NCBI GenBank assembly: GCA_964523525.1
Contig: CAZFYO010000003.1
Location: 92,911 to 156,910, forward strand
Direction: 5' to 3'
From: an uncultured Elusimicrobia bacterium
GTDB lineage: Bacteria; Elusimicrobiota; Elusimicrobia; 2-02-FULL-39-32
Length of the DNA: 64,000 bases
The position numbers and the translations under genes are program-made. The notes under the pieces were generated by a model. It saw only the letters and a list, made by a program, of their open reading frames with translations, had not been told where the DNA came from and did no database searches. Shown here in pieces: positions 49,355 through 64,000 of this stretch. Each line of letters begins with the position of its first letter. Within the stretch, counting starts at the first letter, position 1.

Positions 49355-49406
49355 TCCGTTGAAGCCGCCCTCGGGCTTTGGTATCATATAAGACAACAGG
49401 TTGAAT

Positions 49407-49479
49407 GTGCCCGTAGCTCAGTTGGTAGAGCACTCGACTTTTAATCGAGTTGTCGAGAGTTCGAATCTCTCCGGGCACA
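49407..49479 (+). tRNA. tRNA-Lys (anticodon UUU)
   Basis: Cloverleaf folded by hand: acceptor stem GTGCCCG/CGGGCAC, D-arm GCTC-AGTTGGTA-GAGC, anticodon stem-loop CTCGA-CTTTTAA-TCGAG, T-arm GAGAG-TTCGAAT-CTCTC, discriminator A; 73 nt. Confidence 0.85.
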
Positions 49480-49523
49480 CCCTTTAACCTTCCTCCTCCC
49501 CAAAGAAAAAAACGCGCAGGATA

Positions 49524-51184: not shown

Positions 51185-51231
51185 AAAAGAGAAAGGCCTG
51201 ATCGCTAACGCGATTACGGCCTTTCTCTTTT
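51185..51231. terminator. Bidirectional intrinsic-terminator-like hairpin between the NmrA-like gene and aceK
   Basis: 14-bp stem (AAAAGAGAAAGGCC / GGCCTTTCTCTTTT) with inner ATCGC/GCGAT stem; U-rich 3' flank on both strands; the aceK stop codon lies in the loop. Confidence 0.5.
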
Positions 51232-52974
51232 GAGGCGGGACGGTTCCTTGTAGGGGAGTATTTCCGCGATTTCGCCGGCTGCGAGGCGCTTCTGGAGGTC
51301 CTGCCAGTAGCGCACCGTGAAGAGGTCGCCGTGGAGCGGGTCGAAGACCTTGCGCATCCTCGGGTCGAGTCCGATGAACGTCCTGAACTCCTGGGGAAAG
51401 ATGTCGGCATCGCCCACGTAGAACCAGGGTTCGCTTTCCAGCTCCTCGCTTTCGTCCCGCGCCGCCGGGACCTCGCGGATATTGCAGTCCGTCAGCAGGC
51501 ATAGCTCATCGTAGTCGTAAAAGACCACCCGTTCGTTGCGGGTCACGCCGAAATTCTTCAGCAAAATGTCGCCCGGAAAGATGTTGGCCTTGGCCATGTC
51601 CTTGATGGCGCTCCCAAAATCCACCGCCGCATCCCGCGCCAGCTCTTCCGGCGCTTCCTTCAAGTAAATGTTGAGCGGCACGACGCGGCGCTCCGTATAG
51701 AGATGGCGGATGATCACGGTGTCGCCGGAAATCGAGACGGATTTGGCGGCCTGTTGAGTGAGCTCCTGCAGAAGCTCTTCAGTGAAGCGGCTCTTATCGA
51801 ACTCCAAATGTTCAAATTCTTGCGCATCCACAAGGCGCCCGGCGCGGTCGTGCTGGAACACGAGGTGGTACTTGGCCAATACCTGCTGGCGCGACGTGCG
51901 TTTTGTGTAACTGAATTTGTCTTTAATGATTTTGAAAACTACGTCATAAGATGGCAGCTCGAACACGGTCATCACCATGCCCTTTTCGCCCGGGGAGATG
52001 CGGAATTTATCTTTTGATTCCTGAAGGTGGCGGTAGAGGTCGCGGTAGAGCTCGGTTTTTCCGTGCTTGTTGAATCCGATGGAAATGTAGAGCTCGGCTT
52101 TGGGCTTTTGCGGCATTATAGACTGCAGGAAATCGACCAGCTCCCGGGGCTTTTTGACCTTCACGTGAAAATAGGAGCGCGTGAAGCTGAATACGATGCT
52201 GACTTCGGAATCATTGAGCAAAACCGCGTCCACCAGGATCTGGCCCGCAGGGTTGCGGAGCGCCAACACCAGCGGCAGTTCGCCTTTGGCGGCGCGGATT
52301 TTACCGACGATAAATGCGCCGTTGCCGCGATAAAAGACGGGCTTGATCACGTCGATCTGTTCGAACTTTGCCGAGCCGAAACGGGATTGGAGCTGCTGTT
52401 CAATGCGCCGCGCGCACAGTTCCGCGTCTCCGCCGATATCTTCGAATGGCGCGTTGAATTCGTAGCGTTTCAGAAGCTCTATCAAAAGGTTCGGCAGGGG
52501 CCCGTTGCTGGGATAGGAACGGTAAATGGGTTTTTCGCTCTGGATCGGCGGCGTATCGAGCTCGGAGTCGAGATACTCCGCGCCGGGCTCGGTGCCAATC
52601 ACCACCATGACCTTGCGCAGGGTGGAGTTGTAAAACGTTTTGGCCAGTTCGATATCCTGCCGCGCCGCTACGAGAGCGGTAAAATTCATTTTAGCCTGCG
52701 ACCAGAGGCGGCTGTCGTTGTGTCCGCTGCCGACCAGCTCCTTGACCTTGGGGATCAGCTGGTTGATGATCTTGGTATAGAGGTCGAGGCGCTCGATGGC
52801 GTCGCGCTGCGCGCCGGTCCAGTCGCACTTCTCGAAACGGGTGCGGGCCCGGGAGGTGATCTCCGTAAATTTTTCCTGATAGATGTTGAACGCTTCGAGG
52901 ATGAGCGCGGCGCAGCCGGCGGCGGCGGCCGCGCGGGCGGCGGGGTCGGAGGAGGAGGACGGTTCGCGGCTCAT
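51214..52974 (-). CDS. aceK: Isocitrate dehydrogenase kinase/phosphatase
   Basis: AceK-family similarity over 586 aa (…NIYQEKF…, kinase-like C-terminal region); divergent from aceB. Coordinates are taken from the ORF track; my own base indexing disagreed by 1 nt near 52.92 kb. Confidence 0.85.
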   Translation of the reverse strand: MSREPSSSSDPAARAAAAAGCAALILEAFNIYQEKFTEITSRARTRFEKCDWTGAQRDAIERLDLYTKIINQLIPKVKELVGSGHNDSRLWSQAKMNFTALVAARQDIELAKTFYNSTLRKVMVVIGTEPGAEYLDSELDTPPIQSEKPIYRSYPSNGPLPNLLIELLKRYEFNAPFEDIGGDAELCARRIEQQLQSRFGSAKFEQIDVIKPVFYRGNGAFIVGKIRAAKGELPLVLALRNPAGQILVDAVLLNDSEVSIVFSFTRSYFHVKVKKPRELVDFLQSIMPQKPKAELYISIGFNKHGKTELYRDLYRHLQESKDKFRISPGEKGMVMTVFELPSYDVVFKIIKDKFSYTKRTSRQQVLAKYHLVFQHDRAGRLVDAQEFEHLEFDKSRFTEELLQELTQQAAKSVSISGDTVIIRHLYTERRVVPLNIYLKEAPEELARDAAVDFGSAIKDMAKANIFPGDILLKNFGVTRNERVVFYDYDELCLLTDCNIREVPAARDESEELESEPWFYVGDADIFPQEFRTFIGLDPRMRKVFDPLHGDLFTVRYWQDLQKRLAAGEIAEILPYKEPSRLKRERP

Positions 52975-53062
52975 GCTATTTCTTATCAGGAATGGCCCGT
53001 TTAATCAAGAGGCAGAAACGAGCCGAAAAAGGCGTGGCAAGTGCGTTGCGTCTCGATGTCCG

Positions 53063-53102
53063 GCGGAAAAAAATAAACTGAAATTTCCGCTTGAAATTTT
53101 CC
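53063..53102. promoter_or_regulatory. Candidate operator in the aceK-aceB divergent intergenic region
   Basis: Inverted repeat GCGGAAA-N14-TTTCCGC (53063-53090) plus direct repeat TGAAATTTCC / TGAAATTTTCC (53079-53102), overlapping a -35-like TTGAAA about 35 nt upstream of the aceB ATG. Confidence 0.3.
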
Positions 53103-53130
53103 TTAACTTCATTAGAGTTAGAGAGCCATT

Positions 53131-54732
53131 ATGCCAAACGACCCCTATTCCGCCCTCGGAGTCCGGTTCACGGAACCGGTCGCGCCGGACCAGCAAAGCA
53201 TCCTTTCGGAGGCCGCGGTCTCCTTTTTAGCCAAACTCGTCCGCGAATTCGGGCCAAGGCGCGCGGAGCTGCTGCGTAAACGCACCGAACGGCAGATGCG
53301 GATTGACGACGGCCTGAGGCCTTCATTTCTGCTGGAAACCCACGGCGTGAGGGAAGGAAACTGGACCTGCGCTCCCATCCCGAAGGATTTGATGGACCGC
53401 CGGGTTGAGATCACCGGTCCCACCGACCGCAAGATGATCATCAACGCGCTCAATTGCGGCGCCAACGTCTTCATGGCGGACTTTGAGGACTCGAACGCTC
53501 CCACCTGGAAGAACATGATCCAGGGCCAGATCAACCTGCGCGACGCGGTCCGCGGCAAAATCGATTTTACCAGCCCCGAGGGCAAGGAATATAAGCTTAA
53601 ACCCAAAACCGCGACCCTGATGGTCCGGCCGCGCGGCTGGCACCTCGAAGAAAAGCACGTGCTTGTCGACGGAAAACCGGTCTCGGCTTCACTTTTTGAT
53701 TTTGCGGTCTTCTTCTTCCACAACGCGCAGGCGCTCATCGATAAAGGCACCGGCCCTTACTTTTATCTGCCCAAAATGGAGAGCCATCTGGAAGCGCGGC
53801 TCTGGAACGACGTATTTTTGCGCGCTCAGGACGAGTTGAAGATTCCGCGCGGCACGATCCGCGCGACCGTGTTGATCGAAACGATCCTGGCGGCCTTCGA
53901 GATGGACGAAATCCTCTATGAGCTGCGCGACCATTCCGCCGGGCTCAACTGCGGGCGATGGGACTACATCTTCAGCTTCATCAAGAAGTTCTGCGCCTAT
54001 CCCGATAATATATTCCCCGACCGCGCCCAGGTCGGCATGACCACCCATTTCCTCCGTTCCTATTCCAAACTGCTCATTCAGACCTGCCACCGGCGCGGCA
54101 TCCACGCGATGGGCGGCATGGCGGCGCAGATTCCCATTAAAAACAATCCCGCGGCCAACGACGCGGCCATGGCCAAGGTGCGGGCCGACAAGGAACGCGA
54201 AGTCACCGACGGCCATGACGGCACCTGGGTGGCGCATCCCGACCTCGTGGGCATCGCCAAAGAGATTTTTGACAAACATATGAAGGGCCCGCATCAAATT
54301 GATAAAAAAATCACCGATCTGAAGGTGACGGCCGAGGATTTATTGATGGTTCCCAAGGGCGATATCACCGAAGCAGGGCTGCGCACCAACATCGACGTGG
54401 GTGTGGCGTATCTCGAAGCCTGGCTGCGCGGACAGGGCTGCGTTCCCATCTACAATTTGATGGAAGACGCCGCGACCTCCGAGATTTCTCGGGCGCAGGT
54501 CTGGCAGTGGATCCATCACCGGGCCAAAATGACCGACGGGCGGATGGTGACCGCCGAGCTGTACCGTTCGCTGCTGAAGGAAGTCATTGAAGCGGTGCGC
54601 TCGCATCTGGGCCAGGAAAAATTTGAGCAGAGCAAATTCGCCTTGGCCAGCCTTCTTTTCGAAAAGATGGTGACGGCCGAACACTTCCCGCAGTTTCTGA
54701 CGCTGGAAGCCTATGGCAAACTCGAGGGATAA
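53131..54732 (+). CDS. aceB: Malate synthase A
   Basis: Malate synthase A family similarity across 533 aa (…[22 protein letters not shown]…[40 protein letters not shown]…). Confidence 0.9.
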
Positions 54733-54736
54733 CTCC

Positions 54737-56035
54737 ATGAACGAATCACAGCGGATCGCGCAGGACTGGAAAAGAAATCCCCGTTGGAAAGGAATCGTTC
54801 GCAATTATTCGCCTGCCGATGTACTGCGTTTGCGCGGGTCCATGAAGATTGAGCATACGCTCGCGCGGCGCGGAGCGGAAAAATTTTGGAAGCTGCTGCA
54901 TTCGGAGCCCTACATTCACGCTTTGGGCGCCATGACGGGCAACCAGGCCGTCGAGATGGTGCAGGCGGGGCTGAAAGCGATCTATTTGAGCGGCTGGCAG
55001 GTTGCCGCCGACGCCAACAATACGGGGCAGATGTATCCCGACCAGAGTTTATATGCCGTGAGCTCGGTGCCCGAGAAGGTGCAGGCGATCAACCGCGCGT
55101 TGCAGCGCGCCGATCAGGTTTGGCACCTCGAGCGGAAGTCCAAGATCGACTGGTTTGCGCCCATTGTGGCCGATGCCGAGGCTGGGTTTGGCGGGGCGTT
55201 GAATGCCTACGAGCTCATGAAGGCGATGATCGAAGCGGGCGCCGCCGCGGTTCACTTTGAAGACCAGCTCGCCAGCGAAAAAAAGTGCGGACACATGGGC
55301 GGCAAAGTCCTCGTGCCCGCGCAGGAGTTTATTCGCAAACTCGAGGCGGCGCGCCTCGCTTCCGACGTGCTCGGGGTCCCGACTTTGATCGTGGCGCGCA
55401 CGGATGCCGATGGAGCCAAGCTTTTAACCAGCGATATCGACGAGCGCGACCAGGAATTCATGACCGGCGAACGGACCGCGGAAGGGTTTTACCGCATCAA
55501 GGCCGGCGTGGACTGCGCCATCGCGCGCGGCGTCGCCTACGCGCCCTACGCGGACCTGGTCTGGTGCGAAACCTCCAAGCCCGATCTGCATGACGCCAAA
55601 AAATTCGCGGAAGGCGTGCTCAAAAAGTATCCCCGCAAGCTGCTGGCCTACAACTGTTCGCCTTCCTTCAACTGGAAATTGAACCTGAGCCCGTCGCAAA
55701 TCGCAAAATTCCAACAGGAAATCGGCCGGATGGGTTATAAATTCCAGTTTGTGACGCTCGCGGGCTTCCACGTGCTGAACGCGGGCATGTTTGAGCTGGC
55801 CTCCGGCTACAAAAAGGCCGGCATGGCCGCCTACTCCAAATTCCAGGAAAAAGAATTCGAGATGGAAAAGAAACAGGGATTTGCCGCCGTCAAACATCAG
55901 AGTTTCGTCGGCGCGGGCTATTTCGATGAGATTCAAAACGTACTGACCGGCGGCCAATCGTCCACAAAGGCGCTCAAAGACTCCACCGAGGAAGACCAGT
56001 TCAAGCCGGGTCAGAAGAAAGGCCGGCGCAAGTAA
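54737..56035 (+). CDS. aceA: Isocitrate lyase
   Basis: Isocitrate lyase active-site region (KKCGHMGGK) and family similarity; start at ATG 54737, 5 nt after the aceB stop. Confidence 0.9.
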
Positions 56036-57169
56036 GTGACGTCAAAAATTTCTTCCTTTAACCCTCCTATCCGCACCCTCCTGGGGCCCGGACCCTCCAA
56101 CCTGCACCCGCGCGTTCTGGCCGCGATGGCCAAACCCACGATTGGGCACCTCGATCCCGAGTTTATCCGCATGATGGACGAGCTGCAGCTGCTTCTGCGC
56201 GACGCTTTTCAGACCCGGAATGAAATGACGATGGTCGTCTCCGGCCCCGGGTCGGCCGGAATGGAAACCTGCTTCGTGAATTTGATCGAACCCGGCGAGA
56301 AAGTGATCGTCTGCCAGAACGGCGTCTTCGGAGGCCGGATGAAGGAGAACGTCGAACGCGCGGGCGGAACCTGCGTTTTGATCGAAGACCCCTGGGGCCG
56401 CGCGGTGGACCCGCAAAAGCTCGAGGACGCGCTCAAGAAAAACCCCGACGCGAAACTGGTCGCTTTCGTCCACGCGGAAACGTCCACGGGCGCGCTGAGC
56501 GACGCGAAGACCCTGGCGCAGATCGCGCACAGCGCGAATTGCCTCGTGATCGCCGATACCGTGACATCTTTGGGCGGCGTTCCGCTTCTGGTGGACGAGT
56601 GGGAGCTGGACGCGGTCTATTCCGGCAGCCAGAAGTGCCTGTCCTGCGCTCCGGGACTGTCGCCCATCACGTTCAGCGAGCGGGCCATGAAGAAAGTGAA
56701 GGGACGCTCCGGCAAGGCGCGCAGCTGGTTCCTGGACCTGAACCTCGTCACGGCCTATTGGAACGCCGGGACAGGGGCCGGCGGCAAGCGGGTCTATCAC
56801 CATACCGCTCCGGTCAACGCTCTTTACGGGCTGCACGAGGCGCTGGTTCTCCTGCAGGAAGAGGGGATCCAAAATTCCTGGGCTCGCCATCAAAAAAATC
56901 ATGAAATTTTGAAAAAAGAGCTGGCCGCGCTGGGCATGACGTTCTTCGTGCCCGAGAAAGAGCGGCTGCCGCAATTGAACGCGGTCGTGATTCCCGAGGG
57001 AAAAGACGACGCGCAGATCCGTTCCCGCCTCCTGAACGAGTTCGGCATCGAAATCGGCGCGGGGCTGGGCGTGCTCGCCGGAAAAATCTGGCGTATCGGC
57101 CTGATGGGCTACTCCTCCAACCCCGAAAACGTCAGGCACCTTAAAGAAGCGCTGAAGAAACTGATTTGA
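56036..57169 (+). CDS. Class V aminotransferase (alanine/serine--glyoxylate aminotransferase-like)
   Basis: PLP fold-type I class V features (…FVHAETSTGAL…VDEWELDAVYSGSQKCLSCAPGLS…); GTG start abutting the aceA stop. Confidence 0.8.
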   Translation: MTSKISSFNPPIRTLLGPGPSNLHPRVLAAMAKPTIGHLDPEFIRMMDELQLLLRDAFQTRNEMTMVVSGPGSAGMETCFVNLIEPGEKVIVCQNGVFGGRMKENVERAGGTCVLIEDPWGRAVDPQKLEDALKKNPDAKLVAFVHAETSTGALSDAKTLAQIAHSANCLVIADTVTSLGGVPLLVDEWELDAVYSGSQKCLSCAPGLSPITFSERAMKKVKGRSGKARSWFLDLNLVTAYWNAGTGAGGKRVYHHTAPVNALYGLHEALVLLQEEGIQNSWARHQKNHEILKKELAALGMTFFVPEKERLPQLNAVVIPEGKDDAQIRSRLLNEFGIEIGAGLGVLAGKIWRIGLMGYSSNPENVRHLKEALKKLI

Positions 57170-57197
57170 TGGCACGCAAAATGAAGGTGAAATCTTG

Positions 57198-58292
57198 ATG
57201 GCGCGCGAAATCCGGCCCGCTCTGAGAACGGGCGTCAGCGTCAAAGCCCAGCTGATCGCCCGGCTGCGCTTCAGCCACGTCCTCACGCTTTCCGAGAAGG
57301 AATTTGCCCGGATGATCAGCGACATCGAGAATGATCCGCTTTTCCAGAAATTTCTATACCCCAAAGATTCCGGACCCAAGGCCATTTTCAAGCGGCGCGT
57401 CCCGCACCAGCGCCTGTCCCCCGCCTTCTACGAAGCGAAGGACGAGATCAGCGCCGGCGCGGAAGGCGTGGACGTTGAGAATATCCTGGAGCAGCACCGG
57501 GGAGTGATCGATTTGATCCGCAAAATCGGCCAGGAGTCCTTTGAAAAGCATTTCCTCTACAAGGAGGGGACCGAATCCGCCGCTTCCATCGCCGAGAAGT
57601 GCGGGGTTTTCCCGGAGGACGTGATGAGGGTTCAGGCGGCGGTCACCCAGCTTTCCGTGCATTCGGAGTTTTTCAATCCGACCACACTGCCGGCCGAAAC
57701 GGGCCTGCGCTACACCCTGATCGCCCGGATCGACCCCGATGAACAGGGCTCGTTCTGGATCTCGTTCACGTCGCCGCACCTGGCGGCGGGGCGTTACGTC
57801 ATCAATCCGGAGCGCGTGGACGCGCTCAAAAAAGATTTGGCCGCCTCCGAAAGAAAAGCGGTCACGAACCTGATTCAGAAGCTGGAGCTCATCAACCTGC
57901 GGCAGGACACCCTGCACAAGATGCTGCAGGAAGTCCTGGTCCGGCAGAAAGGCTATCTGAGCTCCAACGACGCGTCGCGCCGCCTGCCGCTTTCCCAGCG
58001 CGACATGGCCGCCCACCTCGGCGTTGCCGCCTCCACGGTTTGCCGGGCGCTCTACGGAAAAAGCGTGCTCGCTCCCTGGGGCCGGGAAATGCCGCTCAAG
58101 GATTTCTTCGTCAACAAGAAAAACGCCGCCGAGGAGTGGGTCCGGCAGATCCTCGAGGAAATGCCCGAGGAAAAAAGGGACCAGTTGAGCGACAATGATT
58201 TGCGCGGCCTCCTCGCCCAGCGTTTTCGGTGCAAGGCGTCCCGCAGGTCCGTCAATCTCTATCGCCGCGCGGTTGAACAAAAATCAAAGTAG
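57198..58292 (+). CDS. rpoN: Compact sigma-54-like factor (RpoN family), about 365 aa
   Basis: Region-I-like N-terminus (VLTLSEKEFARMISDIENDPLFQK), sigma-54 HTH (LPLSQRDMAAHLGVAASTVCRAL…LKDFF) and RpoN-box-like C-terminus (SRRSVNLYRRA). Shorter than typical RpoN. Confidence 0.65.
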   Translation: MAREIRPALRTGVSVKAQLIARLRFSHVLTLSEKEFARMISDIENDPLFQKFLYPKDSGPKAIFKRRVPHQRLSPAFYEAKDEISAGAEGVDVENILEQHRGVIDLIRKIGQESFEKHFLYKEGTESAASIAEKCGVFPEDVMRVQAAVTQLSVHSEFFNPTTLPAETGLRYTLIARIDPDEQGSFWISFTSPHLAAGRYVINPERVDALKKDLAASERKAVTNLIQKLELINLRQDTLHKMLQEVLVRQKGYLSSNDASRRLPLSQRDMAAHLGVAASTVCRALYGKSVLAPWGREMPLKDFFVNKKNAAEEWVRQILEEMPEEKRDQLSDNDLRGLLAQRFRCKASRRSVNLYRRAVEQKSK

Positions 58293-58466
58293 TTTCTCCG
58301 ACGGAAAAGTGCCTCCCGCGGCCCCAAATTGTTACACATTATTTACATTAACTTCAGGTCTAATTTAACTCCCGACTGATATACTTTTGGCTCTGACGCA
58401 GAGCTTAAATAAGGAAAGGAGAACCTCCTGAAAGAGGCCAGCCTCGGGAAAAACCGTCCAACCGCC

Positions 58467-61400
58467 GTGAATCGGGGCCGCAAAGCGGTCGCCTGCGCTC
58501 TCGTGCTGTCCCTTTTACAGTCCGTGCTGCTCGCCCCGGCGGTTCAGGCGGGGTTGTGGCAGGACCGCCGCGAAGCGGCGAAGTCGCTTCCCTTGCTGGC
58601 GCAGCTGCCGGCGGACCTGGCCCCTATGGGTCCGTCGAACTGGCAGATGGACGCGCCAGCCAGCCCGCTCGCTTCGAGCCTGCAGAATTTCGCCGCTCCT
58701 TCCTGGCTCCGAAACCTTCCCCTCCAATACGCCAGTCTGAGGCGTTTGTCATTCCCGCCCGGCTGGAACCCTTCCGACCCCATCGTCATCCATATCCAGG
58801 ACGTGCACCAGAACGCCGAGGCGCAGGAGAACATCAGCCTGACGCTGCGTGAGCTGATCCGCGGGGGCCGGTTGAACCTGGTCGCGCTCGAAGGCTCGTT
58901 TGAAACGATGGATTTCAGCCGGTTCCGCTCCTACGAGGACGCGGATTCGGTGCGAAAGGTAACGGACTATCTGCTGCGCGAGGGGAAAATTTCCGGCGCG
59001 GTGCATGCCGCGTTCGCCAGCGAGAAGGCCCCGCCCAAATTTGCCGGCGTCGATGACCGCGAGCACTATTTCGCGCATGTCGATGCATACAAGAATTCGC
59101 GGGGCGCGGCGCAGGAAGTGAAAAAGGCTCTGGCGTCCCAAATGCAGGCGCTGGAAACGGAGAAAGCCGCGAAACTGAACCCCGATCTCAAAGCATTTGA
59201 CGCCGCCGTGCGCGATTTCCGCGCTGAAAAAACGAAGCTGGGCGCTTACGTCCAGTTTTTGACGGCCCGAAGCAAGAAGACCCTTCCCGAGGTCCAGAAA
59301 TTCCTGAAAGCCTTCAAAGCCGAATCGAGCCTCGATTTCGCGCGGGCGGAAAAAGAGCGCGGCGAGATCATCAACAAGCTCGTGAAGAACCTCGGCCGCG
59401 ATCAGGTCAACGGACTTTTGAATGCCAGCCTCTCTTATCGCGTGGGCCGAACGCGCCACGGCGATTTCTACGTCTATCTCCGCGATCTTTGCGCCAAGAA
59501 CGGCGTCGAGTTTGCAAAGTACGCCGCGATGGACGCCTATCTCCAATATGTTTTGTTGTCGGACAGCATCAACGCCGAGAAGCTGCTGCATGAAGTGGAT
59601 TCAATGGAAGCGGCGGGCTATCAGGCGCTCGCCAAAACCCCGCAGGAAACCATCCTGATTAAAAAATCCAAATGGCTTCATCTGGCGGACAAGCTGGTGG
59701 ATTACTCGCTGTCTCCCAAAGAGTGGAAGGAATATCACTCGATGCGGGACTTGGGAGATTCCATGCTGCGCGATCTGGAGCCTTTCGAGGGATTCTTTAA
59801 AGAGGCCCTGATTCGCGATGAGGCGATGGCCGCCAACTTCATCCGCTCCATCGGGACGGATAGGAATGCGGCGGCGGTGCTGGTGACCGGCGGATTCCAT
59901 TCCGAGGGCATTGAAGAGCGTCTGAAACGCAAAGGGATCGCGGTGTTGACGCTGGCACCCAAAATCAGCAAGGTCGAGACGAAAGACGGCGCGGCGTACC
60001 TCAACGTTTTCACGCAGGAAAAAACCCCGCTCGAAAAACTCTTCCAGGGAGAAAAGCTTTTCGTCACTCCGGAAGTGTTTTCACATTCCACGGAATTGTC
60101 TGCTGCGGCCTTTATCGCCCTCTTCAAACGGACAGTTGAGTCAGCCAACGACGCATTCCACCGGCTGAGCGGTTCAAAAGGCGCCGCCTACAATATCATT
60201 TCGGTTGAGCTCACTGAGGGCATCGTCGGTACATTGGAAGGGCCGCAGGGCTCGGAGCGCTTCAAAATCCAGGCCAACGATGAATCCATCGAAAGCGTTC
60301 AATTCATTCCGTTTTCAGGCATGCGCGGCGTCATGGGTCTTTTCCTGGGGAAGGCCAAAGCCATGGGCCTGTACGGCGAAAAATTATGGACGTTTGTCAG
60401 CCGGATCAATTCCGCGCCGATGTCGGTCAAAATGGTGATGGCCGCCGCGGTCGCCCTGCCGCTGTCGTTCCTGTTCAATGAAATGGCGCCCGGACTGGTG
60501 ATGATGGCCACGGTCGGAAGCTCGATGGGGCCCGGCGAGACCGGAAACGAAGCGCGCGCCAAAGTGCTCTGGCACATCGGCTTCGCGCCCGTGCCGAACG
60601 CGCCGGAACGGACCCTTTTTCTGCGAAGCGAAGCGGAGGCCGCCCGCCTCATGCCGGTTCCCCCGGCGGACACGTGGGTCGAAGTCCGTTACCTGGGAGA
60701 GCGGTCCGAATTCCTGCGCATGTCCATGTACCGGCGCGATCCGGGTGAGACCGAGGACCAGTTTTGGGGACGGCACATGCGCGATTCCGAGGAACGGAAA
60801 CTTTTCGACCTGTACCTCACCATCGATCCGTCGTTTTCCGACACGGTCTGGCTGAGTCCGGGCAAGGCGTATCCGGCGCTCCGCGAATTGTTCGGCCCCG
60901 GCGGCTATTCCAGCGAGGCCTGGATACGCGACACGCTCCTGCCCTGGCTGACCGAGCGCGGGTTCGTGGAAGTAAAAGTCGGCCTGCAGGAATCCAGCGA
61001 TAAGCTTTTCAAATCCCTGGGGTTCACGAAATTCGGCGGAGGGACGATGCGAAAAGTCCTGAACGCCAAGTTAAGGCGGCGTTCGGCGCGTTCTCTGACT
61101 CGGGCACCCGCGCCCTGGACGCTCGAAGAGCGGAGGAAGGACGCCATCCTGCGGATATTGAACGGTAGGACGGAGTCGGCCAACATTGTCCAGCTGTACG
61201 CGGAATTCGCGAAGGACCCGGCCTTTGAAGACGCGACCCAATCCGAGTTCGCCGACCTGGTGATGCGGACGCCCGCGATCCTTGACCACCCGATGCTGAG
61301 CCGGTCCCGGAGCGGGGCGTGGCACGTAGGTGATATGGCTCAAATCGTGGCCAAACAGCTGGTGTCCTCAAGCGACCGGCTTGTTTCCAGGTTTACGGCC

Positions 61401-64000
61401 GATTTAGCAGAACCCCTGAGGCAGGTTATTCTCTCGGCCCTTGCGAAATCAAGAGAAGCCGGGAGTGGAGGATATCAGACTTTTATCGATAACTTAACTT
61501 TTGAGGATCGTCCGATAAGCGAAGAAGAATATATGGATATGCTCTATACGTGGTCTGAAAAGTCCACTGTTGAATTTAACAGCGATCTTCAAAAAAGAGT
61601 TGAGGACAGCATTGTCAGGCAATACCAGCGCAATGGGTCAAAAGTAGAGTCGAGGAGAGGGGCTCAGGCGCGAGTATCCGGCAAGGGAAATTATTCGATG
61701 ACGGTTCTGATCAGCCAGCAGGGTTATCCCGCTCTGACATTCAACATTCTCTTGTCCAACAGAAGGAGGTTTTTCGCGGATCCGGACAACCATATTCTCG
61801 CCCAGCATCGTCCTATATCGTTCGGCGCTTATAATTACTTGCTGCTCCTCCAATCAAGGGTTTTTGATCTGGATGACGCGATACTTGATCTTGTTATCAA
61901 GCATGAGATTGAAGAGATGATGGTAAAACACCGGTCCAGGAACCGGATCGGCGCGGCGGAGGCTCACCGCCTTGCGCTTCAATCCTCGGGGGATGAGCGC
62001 TCTGTTGGAAAAGTGCAGGCCGCGCTTCGCGCACAGAATCAAAAAGACGTTTCCGTCCGCAGGGTGCAAAAATTCCTGGGATCCGCGATCGACGAATCCT
62101 TCATCCGGGAAAATGTGGATGCGCTGGAATTGGTGTGCCTGGACGCTGACGACTATCTGGAACTCCTGCCTTCGGATTATTTGGAGGTTAAGAAATATGC
62201 AGCTAACGTCAGTCCGATTCATTTGATGCTGGATTTGATATTTCTAAATTGGAAAGACCCCGCGGAGCCTGCCGAGTTCATCGCGAATTTGCCCCGCATT
62301 CAGCGGCTTTTGGGGAAGGATTGGTTTACGCACAATTGGACCAATCTGGTAACGCAGTACAGCCAGATGGGCGCGGAGCAATTCAATGGAATTTTTGAGC
62401 GTCAGAGGAACGATCCTTGGATCAGGAATAAAAGCCGGGACTGGCTGAGAGAGTATTTTCTGGACATTCCCAATATCCGCCCCATGAAGGAGGAAAAGGA
62501 CATTGAAGCCGTTTTTGAAGGCGGCCTGGAAAACAGCGGATCCGAATTTGACGACTTAAGATCCGCGATCCGGTCCTATCCCGATATATTGACCGAATCC
62601 ATCAAGGCAATTTACAGGGTTCAAGCGGTCGATTTCAGGACGGATGACATCGTTAAGGTAGGGGTCAAAAAAATCGGCGACGGCACCAGCAACGCGGTTT
62701 TCCTGCTGACTGAAATCGTTTTGTCCAATGGCAGGGTGGTTTCCCAATATCCGATCGTCATGAAGGTCAGCAAGGAATCGACCTATGATCTGACCCATCA
62801 GGGAATGCAGCAGATCGTTCAGGCCGCGCGGGAGCTTGCCGCTCAGGATCCTCCGCTGTATCCCAGGATCGGGGGGCAGTGGATTTTTGACTATCTGCAT
62901 GAGTTTTGGATTGTGAGCGAAGAGTTTGTCCCGGGTCCCACGCTTTGGAACGAGATAGCAGGAGTCCGGATGGATCCCGATCTCGGCGATGCCGAAAAGG
63001 AAAGAAGGATCATCGATCTCCTTGCCAGGCAGTTCGACGTGTATCTTCGAGCCTGGAAAACGTGGAACGAACGTTCCGGGGCCCCGCATTGGATCGAAAG
63101 CAAATTTATCGGCGATCCCAATTCTCTTAATATCATCGGAAGAATGATTGTTGACCTGAACTCGCTGCAGGAGTCCATGACACCGGCCGAAATCGTCGAA
63201 CAGATGATACCGGAGGATGTTCTGGCGGATTCGTCTCCACTGTATTCAATATTTGTCCGGCTGGCCCAGGATATCATGGGCGGAGACAGCGGCCGCCAGT
63301 TTCTGTACAGCTCGCACAATCTCAAAATTTTGAGCGCGCTGGAAGAGTATGAGGAATCCGAGGCCGAAAATGACGGCGGCATTGAGCCCGTTAACTCTCT
63401 CGCCTACTGGATCGCCGATCTGGCGCGCTTGAGCCCGTCCAAAGCGAGAGCGGTCGGCCTCGCGGGGCTGGCCGTGGAAATCCCGGCGCTGATCGCGGCC
63501 GGACTGGTGTTGCCGTTCTTCGGCATGGCAGCCTTCCTGGGAGTCTTCGCGGGCGCCCACATCCTCCTGGAAAAAATTTCTGCCGGCCGCCAGAACCGCG
63601 GCCCCCCGACTTTACGCCAGACGGCCGCCCAAATCATCGCGTTCCTTCCGTATCTGCTGATTTCCATCGCAGGAATTTTTTCCGACTCCATTTTAAGTCA
63701 GTATTTCCTTCCCGCTCTCACCGCGGTCTTCGTCCACGCGAAATTTGACCTGCCACTGATCACCCGGCGTTTCCCCAAAGCCGTTTTCAGCCCTGCCGCG
63801 GCCGCCGGGCCTGCGATGCGCCTGTCGGGACAGGGATTGACGGCCGCGCAGCACGTCGTGGTCAACGAAGCGGTCGCAGGATTTTTCAACCGTCCGGTGA
63901 CGGCAAGTGAGCGGCGCATGCTGATCCCAAGAACCCAGGACTACCGCGCTCTGGATCCCACCGGCGCGCTGGCGGCGGAAGGCGTCCGCATCTATGCCCT
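58467..64000 (+). CDS. Giant secreted/membrane multidomain protein, 5' portion (frame open to the window end; more than 1,840 codons in window)
   Basis: Frame 0 has stops at 58377-58379 and 58410-58412 and then none to position 64000 (checked by hand at several coordinates). Not in the track, presumably because no stop lies in the window. Strong SD AAGGAAAGGAGA at 58411-58422; candidate starts CTG 58428 or GTG 58467; signal-peptide-like N-terminus (NRGRKAVACALVLSLLQSVLLAPAVQA). Confidence 0.75.
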   Translation, partial: MNRGRKAVACALVLSLLQSVLLAPAVQAGLWQDRREAAKSLPLLAQLPADLAPMGPSNWQMDAPASPLASSLQNFAAPSWLRNLPLQYASLRRLSFPPGWNPSDPIVIHIQDVHQNAEAQENISLTLRELIRGGRLNLVALEGSFETMDFSRFRSYEDADSVRKVTDYLLREGKISGAVHAAFASEKAPPKFAGVDDREHYFAHVDAYKNSRGAAQEVKKALASQMQALETEKAAKLNPDLKAFDAAVRDFRAEKTKLGAYVQFLTARSKKTLPEVQKFLKAFKAESSLDFARAEKERGEIINKLVKNLGRDQVNGLLNASLSYRVGRTRHGDFYVYLRDLCAKNGVEFAKYAAMDAYLQYVLLSDSINAEKLLHEVDSMEAAGYQALAKTPQETILIKKSKWLHLADKLVDYSLSPKEWKEYHSMRDLGDSMLRDLEPFEGFFKEALIRDEAMAANFIRSIGTDRNAAAVLVTGGFHSEGIEERLKRKGIAVLTLAPKISKVETKDGAAYLNVFTQEKTPLEKLFQGEKLFVTPEVFSHSTELSAAAFIALFKRTVESANDAFHRLSGSKGAAYNIISVELTEGIVGTLEGPQGSERFKIQANDESIESVQFIPFSGMRGVMGLFLGKAKAMGLYGEKLWTFVSRINSAPMSVKMVMAAAVALPLSFLFNEMAPGLVMMATVGSSMGPGETGNEARAKVLWHIGFAPVPNAPERTLFLRSEAEAARLMPVPPADTWVEVRYLGERSEFLRMSMYRRDPGETEDQFWGRHMRDSEERKLFDLYLTIDPSFSDTVWLSPGKAYPALRELFGPGGYSSEAWIRDTLLPWLTERGFVEVKVGLQESSDKLFKSLGFTKFGGGTMRKVLNAKLRRRSARSLTRAPAPWTLEERRKDAILRILNGRTESANIVQLYAEFAKDPAFEDATQSEFADLVMRTPAILDHPMLSRSRSGAWHVGDMAQIVAKQLVSSSDRLVSRFTADLAEPLRQVILSALAKSREAGSGGYQTFIDNLTFEDRPISEEEYMDMLYTWSEKSTVEFNSDLQKRVEDSIVRQYQRNGSKVESRRGAQARVSGKGNYSMTVLISQQGYPALTFNILLSNRRRFFADPDNHILAQHRPISFGAYNYLLLLQSRVFDLDDAILDLVIKHEIEEMMVKHRSRNRIGAAEAHRLALQSSGDERSVGKVQAALRAQNQKDVSVRRVQKFLGSAIDESFIRENVDALELVCLDADDYLELLPSDYLEVKKYAANVSPIHLMLDLIFLNWKDPAEPAEFIANLPRIQRLLGKDWFTHNWTNLVTQYSQMGAEQFNGIFERQRNDPWIRNKSRDWLREYFLDIPNIRPMKEEKDIEAVFEGGLENSGSEFDDLRSAIRSYPDILTESIKAIYRVQAVDFRTDDIVKVGVKKIGDGTSNAVFLLTEIVLSNGRVVSQYPIVMKVSKESTYDLTHQGMQQIVQAARELAAQDPPLYPRIGGQWIFDYLHEFWIVSEEFVPGPTLWNEIAGVRMDPDLGDAEKERRIIDLLARQFDVYLRAWKTWNERSGAPHWIESKFIGDPNSLNIIGRMIVDLNSLQESMTPAEIVEQMIPEDVLADSSPLYSIFVRLAQDIMGGDSGRQFLYSSHNLKILSALEEYEESEAENDGGIEPVNSLAYWIADLARLSPSKARAVGLAGLAVEIPALIAAGLVLPFFGMAAFLGVFAGAHILLEKISAGRQNRGPPTLRQTAAQIIAFLPYLLISIAGIFSDSILSQYFLPALTAVFVHAKFDLPLITRRFPKAVFSPAAAAGPAMRLSGQGLTAAQHVVVNEAVAGFFNRPVTASERRMLIPRTQDYRALDPTGALAAEGVRIYA

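Follow-up and report, generated by a model that had tools for sequence, protein, structure and literature searches.

It was only recently noticed that the Omnitrophota are characterised by mosaic proteins of very great length. These giants, of at least 10,000–30,000 amino acids (aa), combine signal peptides and many membrane helices with N-terminal peptidases, SecA_DEAD domains, sugar-metabolism enzymes and GNAT, NUDIX, methyltransferase and HEAT domains (bioRxiv 10.1101/2023.11.21.568195; bioRxiv 10.64898/2026.06.07.730766). They have been named 'Archaeovorins' and 'multi-enzyme metabolic clusters' (West-Roberts et al. 2023; Nielsen & Lui 2026), the class being defined by a length of at least 10,000 aa, or at least 30,000 aa in West-Roberts et al. 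Here we analyse a giant open reading frame (ORF) that runs off the end of a 64,000-nucleotide stretch of DNA from an uncultured Elusimicrobia bacterium (GenBank assembly GCA_964523525.1, contig CAZFYO010000003.1, forward-strand positions 92,911–156,910), hereafter the window. We read it as the truncated gene of a lineage-specific, multi-copy family of mosaic membrane proteins, with an exported hydrolase head of the TIKI type and a variable cytoplasmic tail, a joint reading to which we give a probability of about 0.55.

The giant gene resembles the Omnitrophota long proteins but is not demonstrably a member of that group. Like them, its product has a signal peptide, membrane helices, an N-terminal peptidase-type domain and a mostly unannotated, sequence-unique mosaic structure. 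The domain vocabulary of its paralogues is also that of the Omnitrophota giants (phosphoglucomutase, GNAT, NUDIX, methyltransferase, HEAT and glycosyl hydrolase), and its membrane module is also found in a SecA_DEAD-containing long protein, P0059. Unlike them, the family with the TIKI-type head is centred on Elusimicrobiota and spans 0.6 to more than 4 thousand aa, and no SecA, C39 or S8 domain was found in the part of the product seen. The TIKI-type head is absent from the descriptions in both giant-Omnitrophota preprints (West-Roberts et al. 2023; Nielsen & Lui 2026).

Parallels to the head lie elsewhere. PrgY, a TIKI/TraB-type peptidase that localises to the membrane, is thought to act extracellularly, and in enterococcal pheromone control it is functionally paired with the M50 protease Eep (PMC7117660). 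The layout of PrgY is like the apparent minimal unit of the present family, and two homologues, one of them weakly, fuse a TIKI-type head to an M50 domain, echoing that pairing; the giant product itself has no M50 domain in the part seen, and no peptide-signalling genes were identified nearby. The MARTX and PMT toxins are likewise very large multidomain proteins with a TIKI-fold endopeptidase (RRSP; PMT C1-C2). Unlike in those toxins, no RTX repeats, cysteine protease autoprocessing domain or type I secretion context was found here, and the TIKI domain is N-terminal, behind a Sec signal and followed by membrane segments. Within the TIKI/TraB/ChaN/Ere superfamily the head is set apart by an all-helical insert of ~250 aa that splits the fold, and by the 1,300 to more than 3,500 further residues that follow it. 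Apart from toxins with an internal or C-terminal domain, we know of no described TIKI protein with such a long C-terminal extension.

A truncated giant gene with a TIKI-type head

Translation of 58353-64000 gave an in-frame TAA at 58410-58412 followed by 1,862 stop-free codons up to the last base of the window, whereas the other five frames contain 20–69 stops each over the same stretch. Given the local base composition, the probability that the whole frame is open by chance is ~1.7e-31. In all 300-codon blocks of the frame, GC content at third codon positions (GC3, 0.61–0.77) exceeds that at first positions (GC1, 0.55–0.66), which in turn exceeds that at second positions (GC2, 0.34–0.48). To score codon usage by log-likelihood, 14 further ORFs from the window served as the training set, of which several have strong Pfam matches; the score was highest in the giant frame for 11 of the 12 blocks. 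In block 61563-62012 (450 nt, GC 0.49) the score is tied with that of one antisense frame, and host-like codon usage scores near zero. This block also stays stop-free, as the original prediction had said of the low-GC stretch; neither an internal stop nor a loss of third-position bias was found. The giant frame is a genuine protein-coding gene, truncated by the window end. It had been called unreported, as the ORF list has no entry in its frame; this is an artefact of how the list was made, with ORFs that run off either end of the stretch left out, and not a matter of biology. The last 60 nt of the window had no exact match in genome or metagenome contig collections.

Residues are numbered throughout from the GTG at 58467, the second of two candidate starts (Table 1). 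An AAGGAG motif 6–7 nt ahead of the start is also present in three other genes of the window, and no Shine–Dalgarno sequence precedes the GTG. CTG is a rare start codon, and the gene may begin there, 13 codons before the GTG that agrees with the starts of homologues. The signal-peptide-like beginning noted in the original prediction was borne out as a Sec-type pattern by hydropathy and by the N-termini of homologues, which show an n-region, an h-region and an A-x-A-type site, with a conserved 'E.NFW.ERR' after it. Across P0001-P0090 the last part of the signal peptide is conserved to an unusual degree ('[ST]NC[VLA][LF]A[HY]A.E.NFW.ERR'), which is odd for a segment that should only be removed; it may instead stay in place as an anchor or serve in sorting.

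The head (~510 aa) was modelled with high confidence as a parallel beta-sheet core flanked by helices. Its structural matches include RRSP, PMT and HopBA1, and ChaN is a close match; the superfamily, which is the Pfam clan of PF04187, includes the structures 2rad, 2qgm, 2g5g, 5t09, 8bqs_DQ, 6xcq, 5w6l and 2ebf. Active TIKI enzymes carry two His, two Glu and a conserved Arg, which in RRSP are E3900, H3902, E3930, R4001 and H4030 (PMC6254334). Residues D112, H114, E142, R450 and H478 of the head reproduce this set, with Asp instead of Glu as the first acid. The spacing from His to Glu is 28 in both proteins, and that from Arg to His is 28 in the head and 29 in RRSP. These residues, together with G143, G475, G476 and P498, are invariant in all three head alignments (51, 33 and 14 sequences). 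E142 and R450 are ~300 residues apart, compared with ~70 at this position in known TIKI members, and ~250 of the intervening residues form the conserved, confidently modelled helical insert. The head ends with the motif YLNVFTQEKTPLEKLFQGEKLF, which is poorly modelled (predicted local distance difference test score, pLDDT, 31–69). The giant product thus begins with a TIKI-superfamily domain that has an intact catalytic-type residue set and lies behind a signal peptide.

Tail modules and membrane segments

Beyond the head the product has little recognisable sequence. The original prediction had seen no obvious match to housekeeping families, and this held. In a Pfam search at E ≤ 10 on eight overlapping pieces, the only hit besides the sub-threshold match of the head to PF04187 was at chance level (E 0.12, aa 540-700); NCBIfam, PADLOC and a phmmer search of PDB sequences gave none. 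No SecA_DEAD-like domain and no multiple enzyme Pfam domains were found in the 1,844 aa seen. The ~950 aa past the first hydrophobic region are almost orphan. A word-indexed search of 5.8e9 proteins with aa 700-1844 gave 0 matches, and an exhaustive phmmer search of 1.84e9 representatives with aa 645-1844 gave only 10 proteins; where a source is named it is Omnitrophota or Elusimicrobia, and the majority of these named proteins are long. The matches fall on different, separate modules, and the order of modules differs between proteins, which marks the tails as shuffled mosaics. Each module recurs only in other long proteins, either from these two phyla or from unnamed metagenome contigs.

Topology was assigned from hydropathy and charge rules alone. 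A hydrophobic segment is found at the place equivalent to aa 621-692 in most Elusimicrobial homologues, and the flanks of this region and of the second one, aa 1640-1765, follow the positive-inside rule. The second region is a membrane module that is also present in P0001, P0002, P0004 (twice), P0055 and P0059. Both the central loop and the C-terminal flank carry a strong positive charge, suggesting two hairpins that begin and end in the cytoplasm. In its motifs the module resembles CPBP/Rce1-like proteases, with FxxxH and HxxxD present but a single Glu and no Arg where EExxxR is expected. This identity was rejected by profile comparison: hhalign against the true CPBP region of P0027 gave a probability of 0.5, and 7 of 7 copies had no match to PF02517.

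Between the two hydrophobic regions, aa 1363-1618 form a probable, though not established, protein-kinase-like domain, a call that leans on a structural model. The AlphaFold2 model, built from 4 sequences, has a pLDDT of 61.7, a predicted template-modelling score of 0.51 and a two-lobed, kinase-like order of strands and helices. In a Foldseek search of the PDB all of the top 50 matches were kinases or pseudokinases, with E values from 1.6e-4 and template-modelling (TM) scores of only 0.24–0.39. K1433, D1550-x4-N1555 and D1563 lie at the positions of the kinase beta3 Lys, catalytic loop and metal-binding Asp; in the 4-sequence alignment K1433 is invariant and D1550 and D1563 are not, which makes this a motif-level match only. 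Pfam returned nothing for this region at E ≤ 10, a profile search of the PDB returned no kinase, and hhalign against an approximate PknB kinase-domain sequence gave a probability of 0.2. The region recurs in P0056, P0058 and P0061, each of them a long or giant protein whose source is either Omnitrophota or an unnamed metagenome.

The window ends inside the last module. Some 90 further residues would complete it, and the closest relatives stop 280–350 aa past their final membrane-module copy; the whole product is therefore expected to reach at least 1,940 aa. In complete copies the pattern HPG...HExxH-x7-E, a zincin-like signature, is near-invariant; the motif itself lies beyond the window, and no HExxH motif occurs in the window part of the protein. 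The segment at aa 1778-1843 is matched in P0054, P0055, P0057, P0060 and P0062, with five copies of the module in P0054, four in P0057 and two in P0055. P0054 also has five XRE-type helix-turn-helix (HTH) stretches, and the two that are resolved lie 30–50 aa before an HExxH copy. A profile of the module had 0 matches among PDB sequences. Both the kinase-like and the HExxH modules recur in long proteins of Omnitrophota.

For the orphan stretch, aa 868-1362, no homologue was found either by the word-indexed search (5.8e9 proteins) or by exhaustive phmmer (1.84e9 representatives), and there was no Pfam match. Two candidates in and near it were discarded. A GNAT-like reading of aa ~760-870 ('...ERGFVEVKVGLQESSDKLFKSLGF') was a motif reading only, with no Pfam support, and a second, degenerate HExxH module near 'KHEIEEM' (aa ~1145) was not found by an unfiltered hidden Markov model (HMM) search, which recovered only the copy at aa 1778. 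A wider low-GC segment, 61500-62500, has a GC content of 0.49–0.50, compared with 0.55–0.62 as typical of the window. This segment, with its atypical codons, coincides with the part of the protein that lacks any homologue, and may be a recently acquired or fast-evolving module. Opposite the giant gene, and overlapping it, are three antisense ORFs of 163–280 aa (58749-59591, 62556-63089 and 62891-63382, all on the minus strand). Their codon scores are poor, and they seem to arise only because the coding strand is GC-rich.

Table 1 Features of the giant gene. Positions are those of the window; residues are counted from the GTG at 58467.
Feature	Residues	Positions	Strand	Basis or remark
Shine–Dalgarno-like sequence GGAAAGGAG		58413..58421	+	Read from sequence
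Candidate start 1, in-frame CTG		58428..58430	+	6 nt past the Shine–Dalgarno-like sequence, canonical spacing
Giant ORF	1 to at least 1,844	58467..64000	+	Open to window end; minimum length 1,844 aa if read from GTG and 1,857 aa if read from CTG
Candidate start 2, GTG	1	58467..58469	+	BLASTP: query residue 1 aligns with residue 1 of P0011 and P0017
Sec-type signal peptide	1-28	58467..58550	+	MNRGRK, hydrophobic core, putative cleavage at AVQA/G; hydropathy 2.24
Conserved N-terminal head	29-540	58551..60086	+	TIKI/TraB/ChaN/Ere-superfamily alpha/beta domain
D112-V-H114, invariant	112-114	58800..58808	+	Equivalent to RRSP E-x-H
E142, invariant catalytic-type Glu	142	58890..58892	+	28 residues past H114
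All-helical insert	~195-440	59049..59786	+	Inside TIKI fold
R450, invariant basic residue	450	59814..59816	+	Equivalent to RRSP R4001
G475-G-F-H478, invariant GxxH motif	475-478	59889..59900	+	H478 28 residues past R450
Tail motif of head, YLNVFTQEKTPLEKLFQGEKLF	511-532	59997..60062	+	Family consensus 'YLSVFTQEKTPLEKLF.GEKLF'; highly conserved
First hydrophobic region, 1–3 membrane helices	621-692	60327..60542	+	Hydropathy peak 652-674; flank charges
Module with no recognised fold	698-867	60558..61067	+	Common to P0055 only; BLASTP 30% identity, E 1e-14 (small local set)
Orphan stretch	868-1362	61068..62552	+	Includes low-GC 61563-62012
Probable protein-kinase-like domain	1363-1618	62553..63320	+	K1433, D1550-x4-N1555, D1563; P0056, P0058, P0061
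Membrane module, ~4 helices	1640-1765	63384..63761	+	Hydropathy; invariant E1671, Y1729, H1757, D1761
Start of HExxH module, first 66 of ~150 residues	1778-1843	63798..63995	+	HMM positions 5-70 of 159, E 1e-27

Family distribution, cargo and gene neighbourhood

Long homologous genes were found in related genomes of Elusimicrobiota and Omnitrophota. A search of 5.8 billion proteins recovered 53 homologues of 1,083–3,130 aa, which match only aa ~5-540 of the query, at their own N-terminus wherever it is present; the named sources among them are Elusimicrobiota, Omnitrophica and "bacterium F11". A profile search added 28 members, including complete proteins of 531–970 aa on long contigs, and from these the minimal unit appears to be a signal peptide, the head and a hydrophobic anchor. 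When one genome per species was scanned, 257 family loci came up, and taxonomy, copy number and ORF length were taken from the best 80 of these. The best 80 lie in ~20 metagenome-assembled genomes (MAGs), which belong to Elusimicrobia, Omnitrophota and "bacterium F11", and several of the MAGs hold at least 5–9 loci each; the in-frame ORFs of the 80 loci span 582–3,092 aa, and 13 were still open beyond 3,800 aa at the end of the fetched flank. The family, found here only in these two phyla, runs from 0.6 to more than 4 thousand aa, and its head is present in a single copy within the window.

The tails of relatives carry varied cargo. That of P0035 (3,074 aa) holds a diverged malate synthase (28% identity) and an isocitrate lyase in three pieces. 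Other relatives carry enzyme domains of the iPGM, phosphoglucomutase, transaldolase, PPDK and CofD-like types, and further cargo comprises GNAT with HEAT repeats, NUDIX, methyltransferase, GH5 cellulase, and XRE- and sigma-type HTH domains. P0031 has an M50 (site-2-protease-like) domain after the head and a ClpB-type AAA+ unit (aa 693-845 and 1159-1772), P0004 has a weak M50 match at aa 798-929 (E 0.021, below the Pfam threshold), and CPBP proteases occur in P0027 and at locus L011. A membrane protease directly after the head does not hold as a general rule, with 2 of 40 by a motif screen.

Two loci need separate mention. L011 and L012, on contig JAJAPZ010000001.1 of Ca. Obscuribacterium magneticum, are 100% identical over 21.7 kb and mirror each other about the exact centre of the contig (184,798 bp), which is therefore a palindromic fold-back assembly artefact and holds no real duplication of the giant gene. 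At L003/L004 (1-1217), ~9 kb upstream of P0007, lies another long gene, called as 2,938 or 3,672 aa, with a phosphoglucomutase domain; Elusimicrobia thus carry further long, enzyme-bearing genes besides those with a TIKI-type head.

Within the window, the five genes upstream of the giant gene are metabolic or regulatory, and none of them is a secretion-system gene. A glyoxylate-shunt cluster at 51214-57169 lies directly upstream, with aceK on the minus strand, malate synthase, isocitrate lyase and a class-V aminotransferase. Among 82 family loci fetched, there was no malate synthase, isocitrate lyase, AceK, aminotransferase or sigma-54-like gene, and the adjacency is therefore probably incidental; the contexts of P0001 and P0007 are unrelated, and family neighbourhoods are not conserved. 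Immediately upstream, 57195-58292 encodes a 365-aa RpoN-like protein that matches only the sigma-54 DNA-binding domain, with no core-binding or activator-interacting region detected. The only RNA gene detected in the window is tRNA-Lys(UUU) at 49406-49482, and no rRNA was found; from its protein homologues the host is most likely a member of the Elusimicrobiota.

Competing readings and significance

In the mechanism that we favour, the signal peptide would export the head, which would act as a membrane-tethered hydrolase, most likely a peptidase as in PrgY, TraB and Tiki, with a substrate in the periplasm or outside the cell. With helices odd in number at aa 621-692 the chain would then re-enter the cytoplasm, where the variable tail would hold its catalytic or regulatory modules against the cytoplasmic side of the membrane. 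Here these would be the atypical kinase-like domain and the zincin-like HExxH module, with the membrane module of ~4 helices between them. The protein would thus be a two-sided, membrane-anchored multi-enzyme, and its paralogues would keep the head while swapping their cytoplasmic cargo.

Several points weigh against this reading. PF04187 scored the head at 17.1 and 19.5 bits, below the gathering threshold of 27.7 (relatives reach 20–27 bits or have precomputed PF04187 matches). The family head profile found no TIKI structure among PDB sequences, where its calmodulin-like matches fall on the helical insert only and are insignificant (E 0.2 or worse). The head is thus placed in the TIKI superfamily by its fold and catalytic residues and not by a curated sequence cut-off, and the first catalytic acid is Asp instead of Glu. 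ChaN is a haem-binding protein, and by analogy a ChaN-like head could bind instead of cleaving. The helix count in aa 621-692 is uncertain, and if it is even the tail would end up outside the membrane. A second hydrophobic segment is mostly missing from the more distant homologues P0038-P0047, of which the named ones are Omnitrophica or Elusimicrobiota; on this reasoning the enzyme domains of those proteins would be exported. The kinase call comes from a low-confidence model (pLDDT 61.7, TM scores of 0.39 or lower) with sequence-level tests all negative, and the gene is incomplete within the window.

A different function for the same parts is a self-processing polyprotein, in which the protein's own protease-like modules (the TIKI head, HExxH, and M50 or CPBP in paralogues) would free the cytoplasmic modules in a regulated manner. 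Such modules do recur in the family (five HExxH copies in P0054, M50 in P0031 and weakly in P0004, CPBP in P0027 and L011), the resolved XRE-type HTH stretches of P0054 stand shortly before HExxH copies, the motif YLNVFTQEKTPLEKLFQGEKLF that closes the head is conserved yet poorly modelled, and West-Roberts et al. raise a like idea for the N-terminal C39/S8 peptidases of giant Omnitrophota proteins. However, membrane proteases right after the head are rare (the 2 of 40 above), the window part of the chain has no HExxH, and the head and most of the chain are predicted to lie on opposite sides of the membrane; we regard self-processing as rather unlikely. The fuller version, for which we would allow a still smaller chance, is that TIKI-headed polyproteins use the exported peptidase together with zincin, M50 and CPBP modules to control the proteolytic release of membrane-held cytoplasmic cargo. 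That cargo may include kinase-like domains, XRE-type factors, malate synthase/isocitrate lyase, phosphoglucomutase and transaldolase. If true, this would be a self-contained device for regulated proteolysis, with 5–10 or more paralogues per genome in Elusimicrobiota and Omnitrophota.

The original prediction had instead proposed a giant surface or secreted multidomain protein. Its description of a very long, multidomain protein with a signal peptide stands, but the surface or secreted placement does not agree with the topology: only the first ~600 aa are predicted outside the cytoplasmic membrane, hydrophobic segments follow, and the stretches between these look cytoplasmic (kinase-like here; HTH, AAA+ and coenzyme A- or sugar-phosphate-utilising enzymes in relatives). 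No adhesin, RTX, immunoglobulin (Ig)-like or internal repeats were found in the part seen, and since only the head is likely to be outside the membrane, the product is probably not a surface adhesin. The wider form of this idea, a secreted or surface effector, toxin or adhesin whose TIKI domain is a toxin-type endopeptidase as in MARTX RRSP, PMT and HopBA1, draws on the signal peptide, on the presence of these three proteins among the structural matches of the head, and on a conserved head with a variable tail that recalls polymorphic toxins. The internal hydrophobic hairpins obey the positive-inside rule, however, and the cargo of relatives is of cytoplasmic type (HTH, AAA+, acetyl-CoA and sugar-phosphate enzymes). 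No RTX, Ig, beta-helix or internal repeats and no CPD domain were found, the TIKI domain is N-terminal rather than a C-terminal toxin, and there are no secretion-system genes among the five upstream and no PADLOC match. We consider a secreted giant improbable.

Equally doubtful is a receptor-type transducer, in which a periplasmic head would serve as a ChaN-like ligand sensor with a cytoplasmic kinase-like output, as in receptor Ser/Thr kinases. The architecture fits loosely, but ~670 unrelated residues separate the membrane segment from the kinase-like domain, which recurs only in P0056, P0058 and P0061 and in no other head-bearing protein among the retrieved homologues; the invariant catalytic residues of the head argue for catalysis, and support for the kinase is itself weak. 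Three further readings, a frame kept open by chance alone, a pseudogene in decay and a fusion created in assembly, are effectively refuted: the 450-nt block 61563-62012 without a host-like codon signal and ~500 aa without a homologue anywhere would suit them, but the probability for the whole frame is ~1e-31, the low-GC part alone is very unlikely to be open by chance, the head and three tail modules have homologues, and GC3 bias runs throughout the frame.

The family is a smaller and more tractable version of the giant-protein design, expanded in Elusimicrobiota. At its N-terminus this version has a recognisable and conserved TIKI/TraB-kind domain that, from its residue pattern, is probably catalytic. 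If cargo is released by proteolysis, the family would add a new form of control over bacterial enzymes and transcription factors. The ~510-aa head offers a concrete target for work on activity, substrate and topology, and a handle for finding and classifying such genes in fragmented metagenomes.

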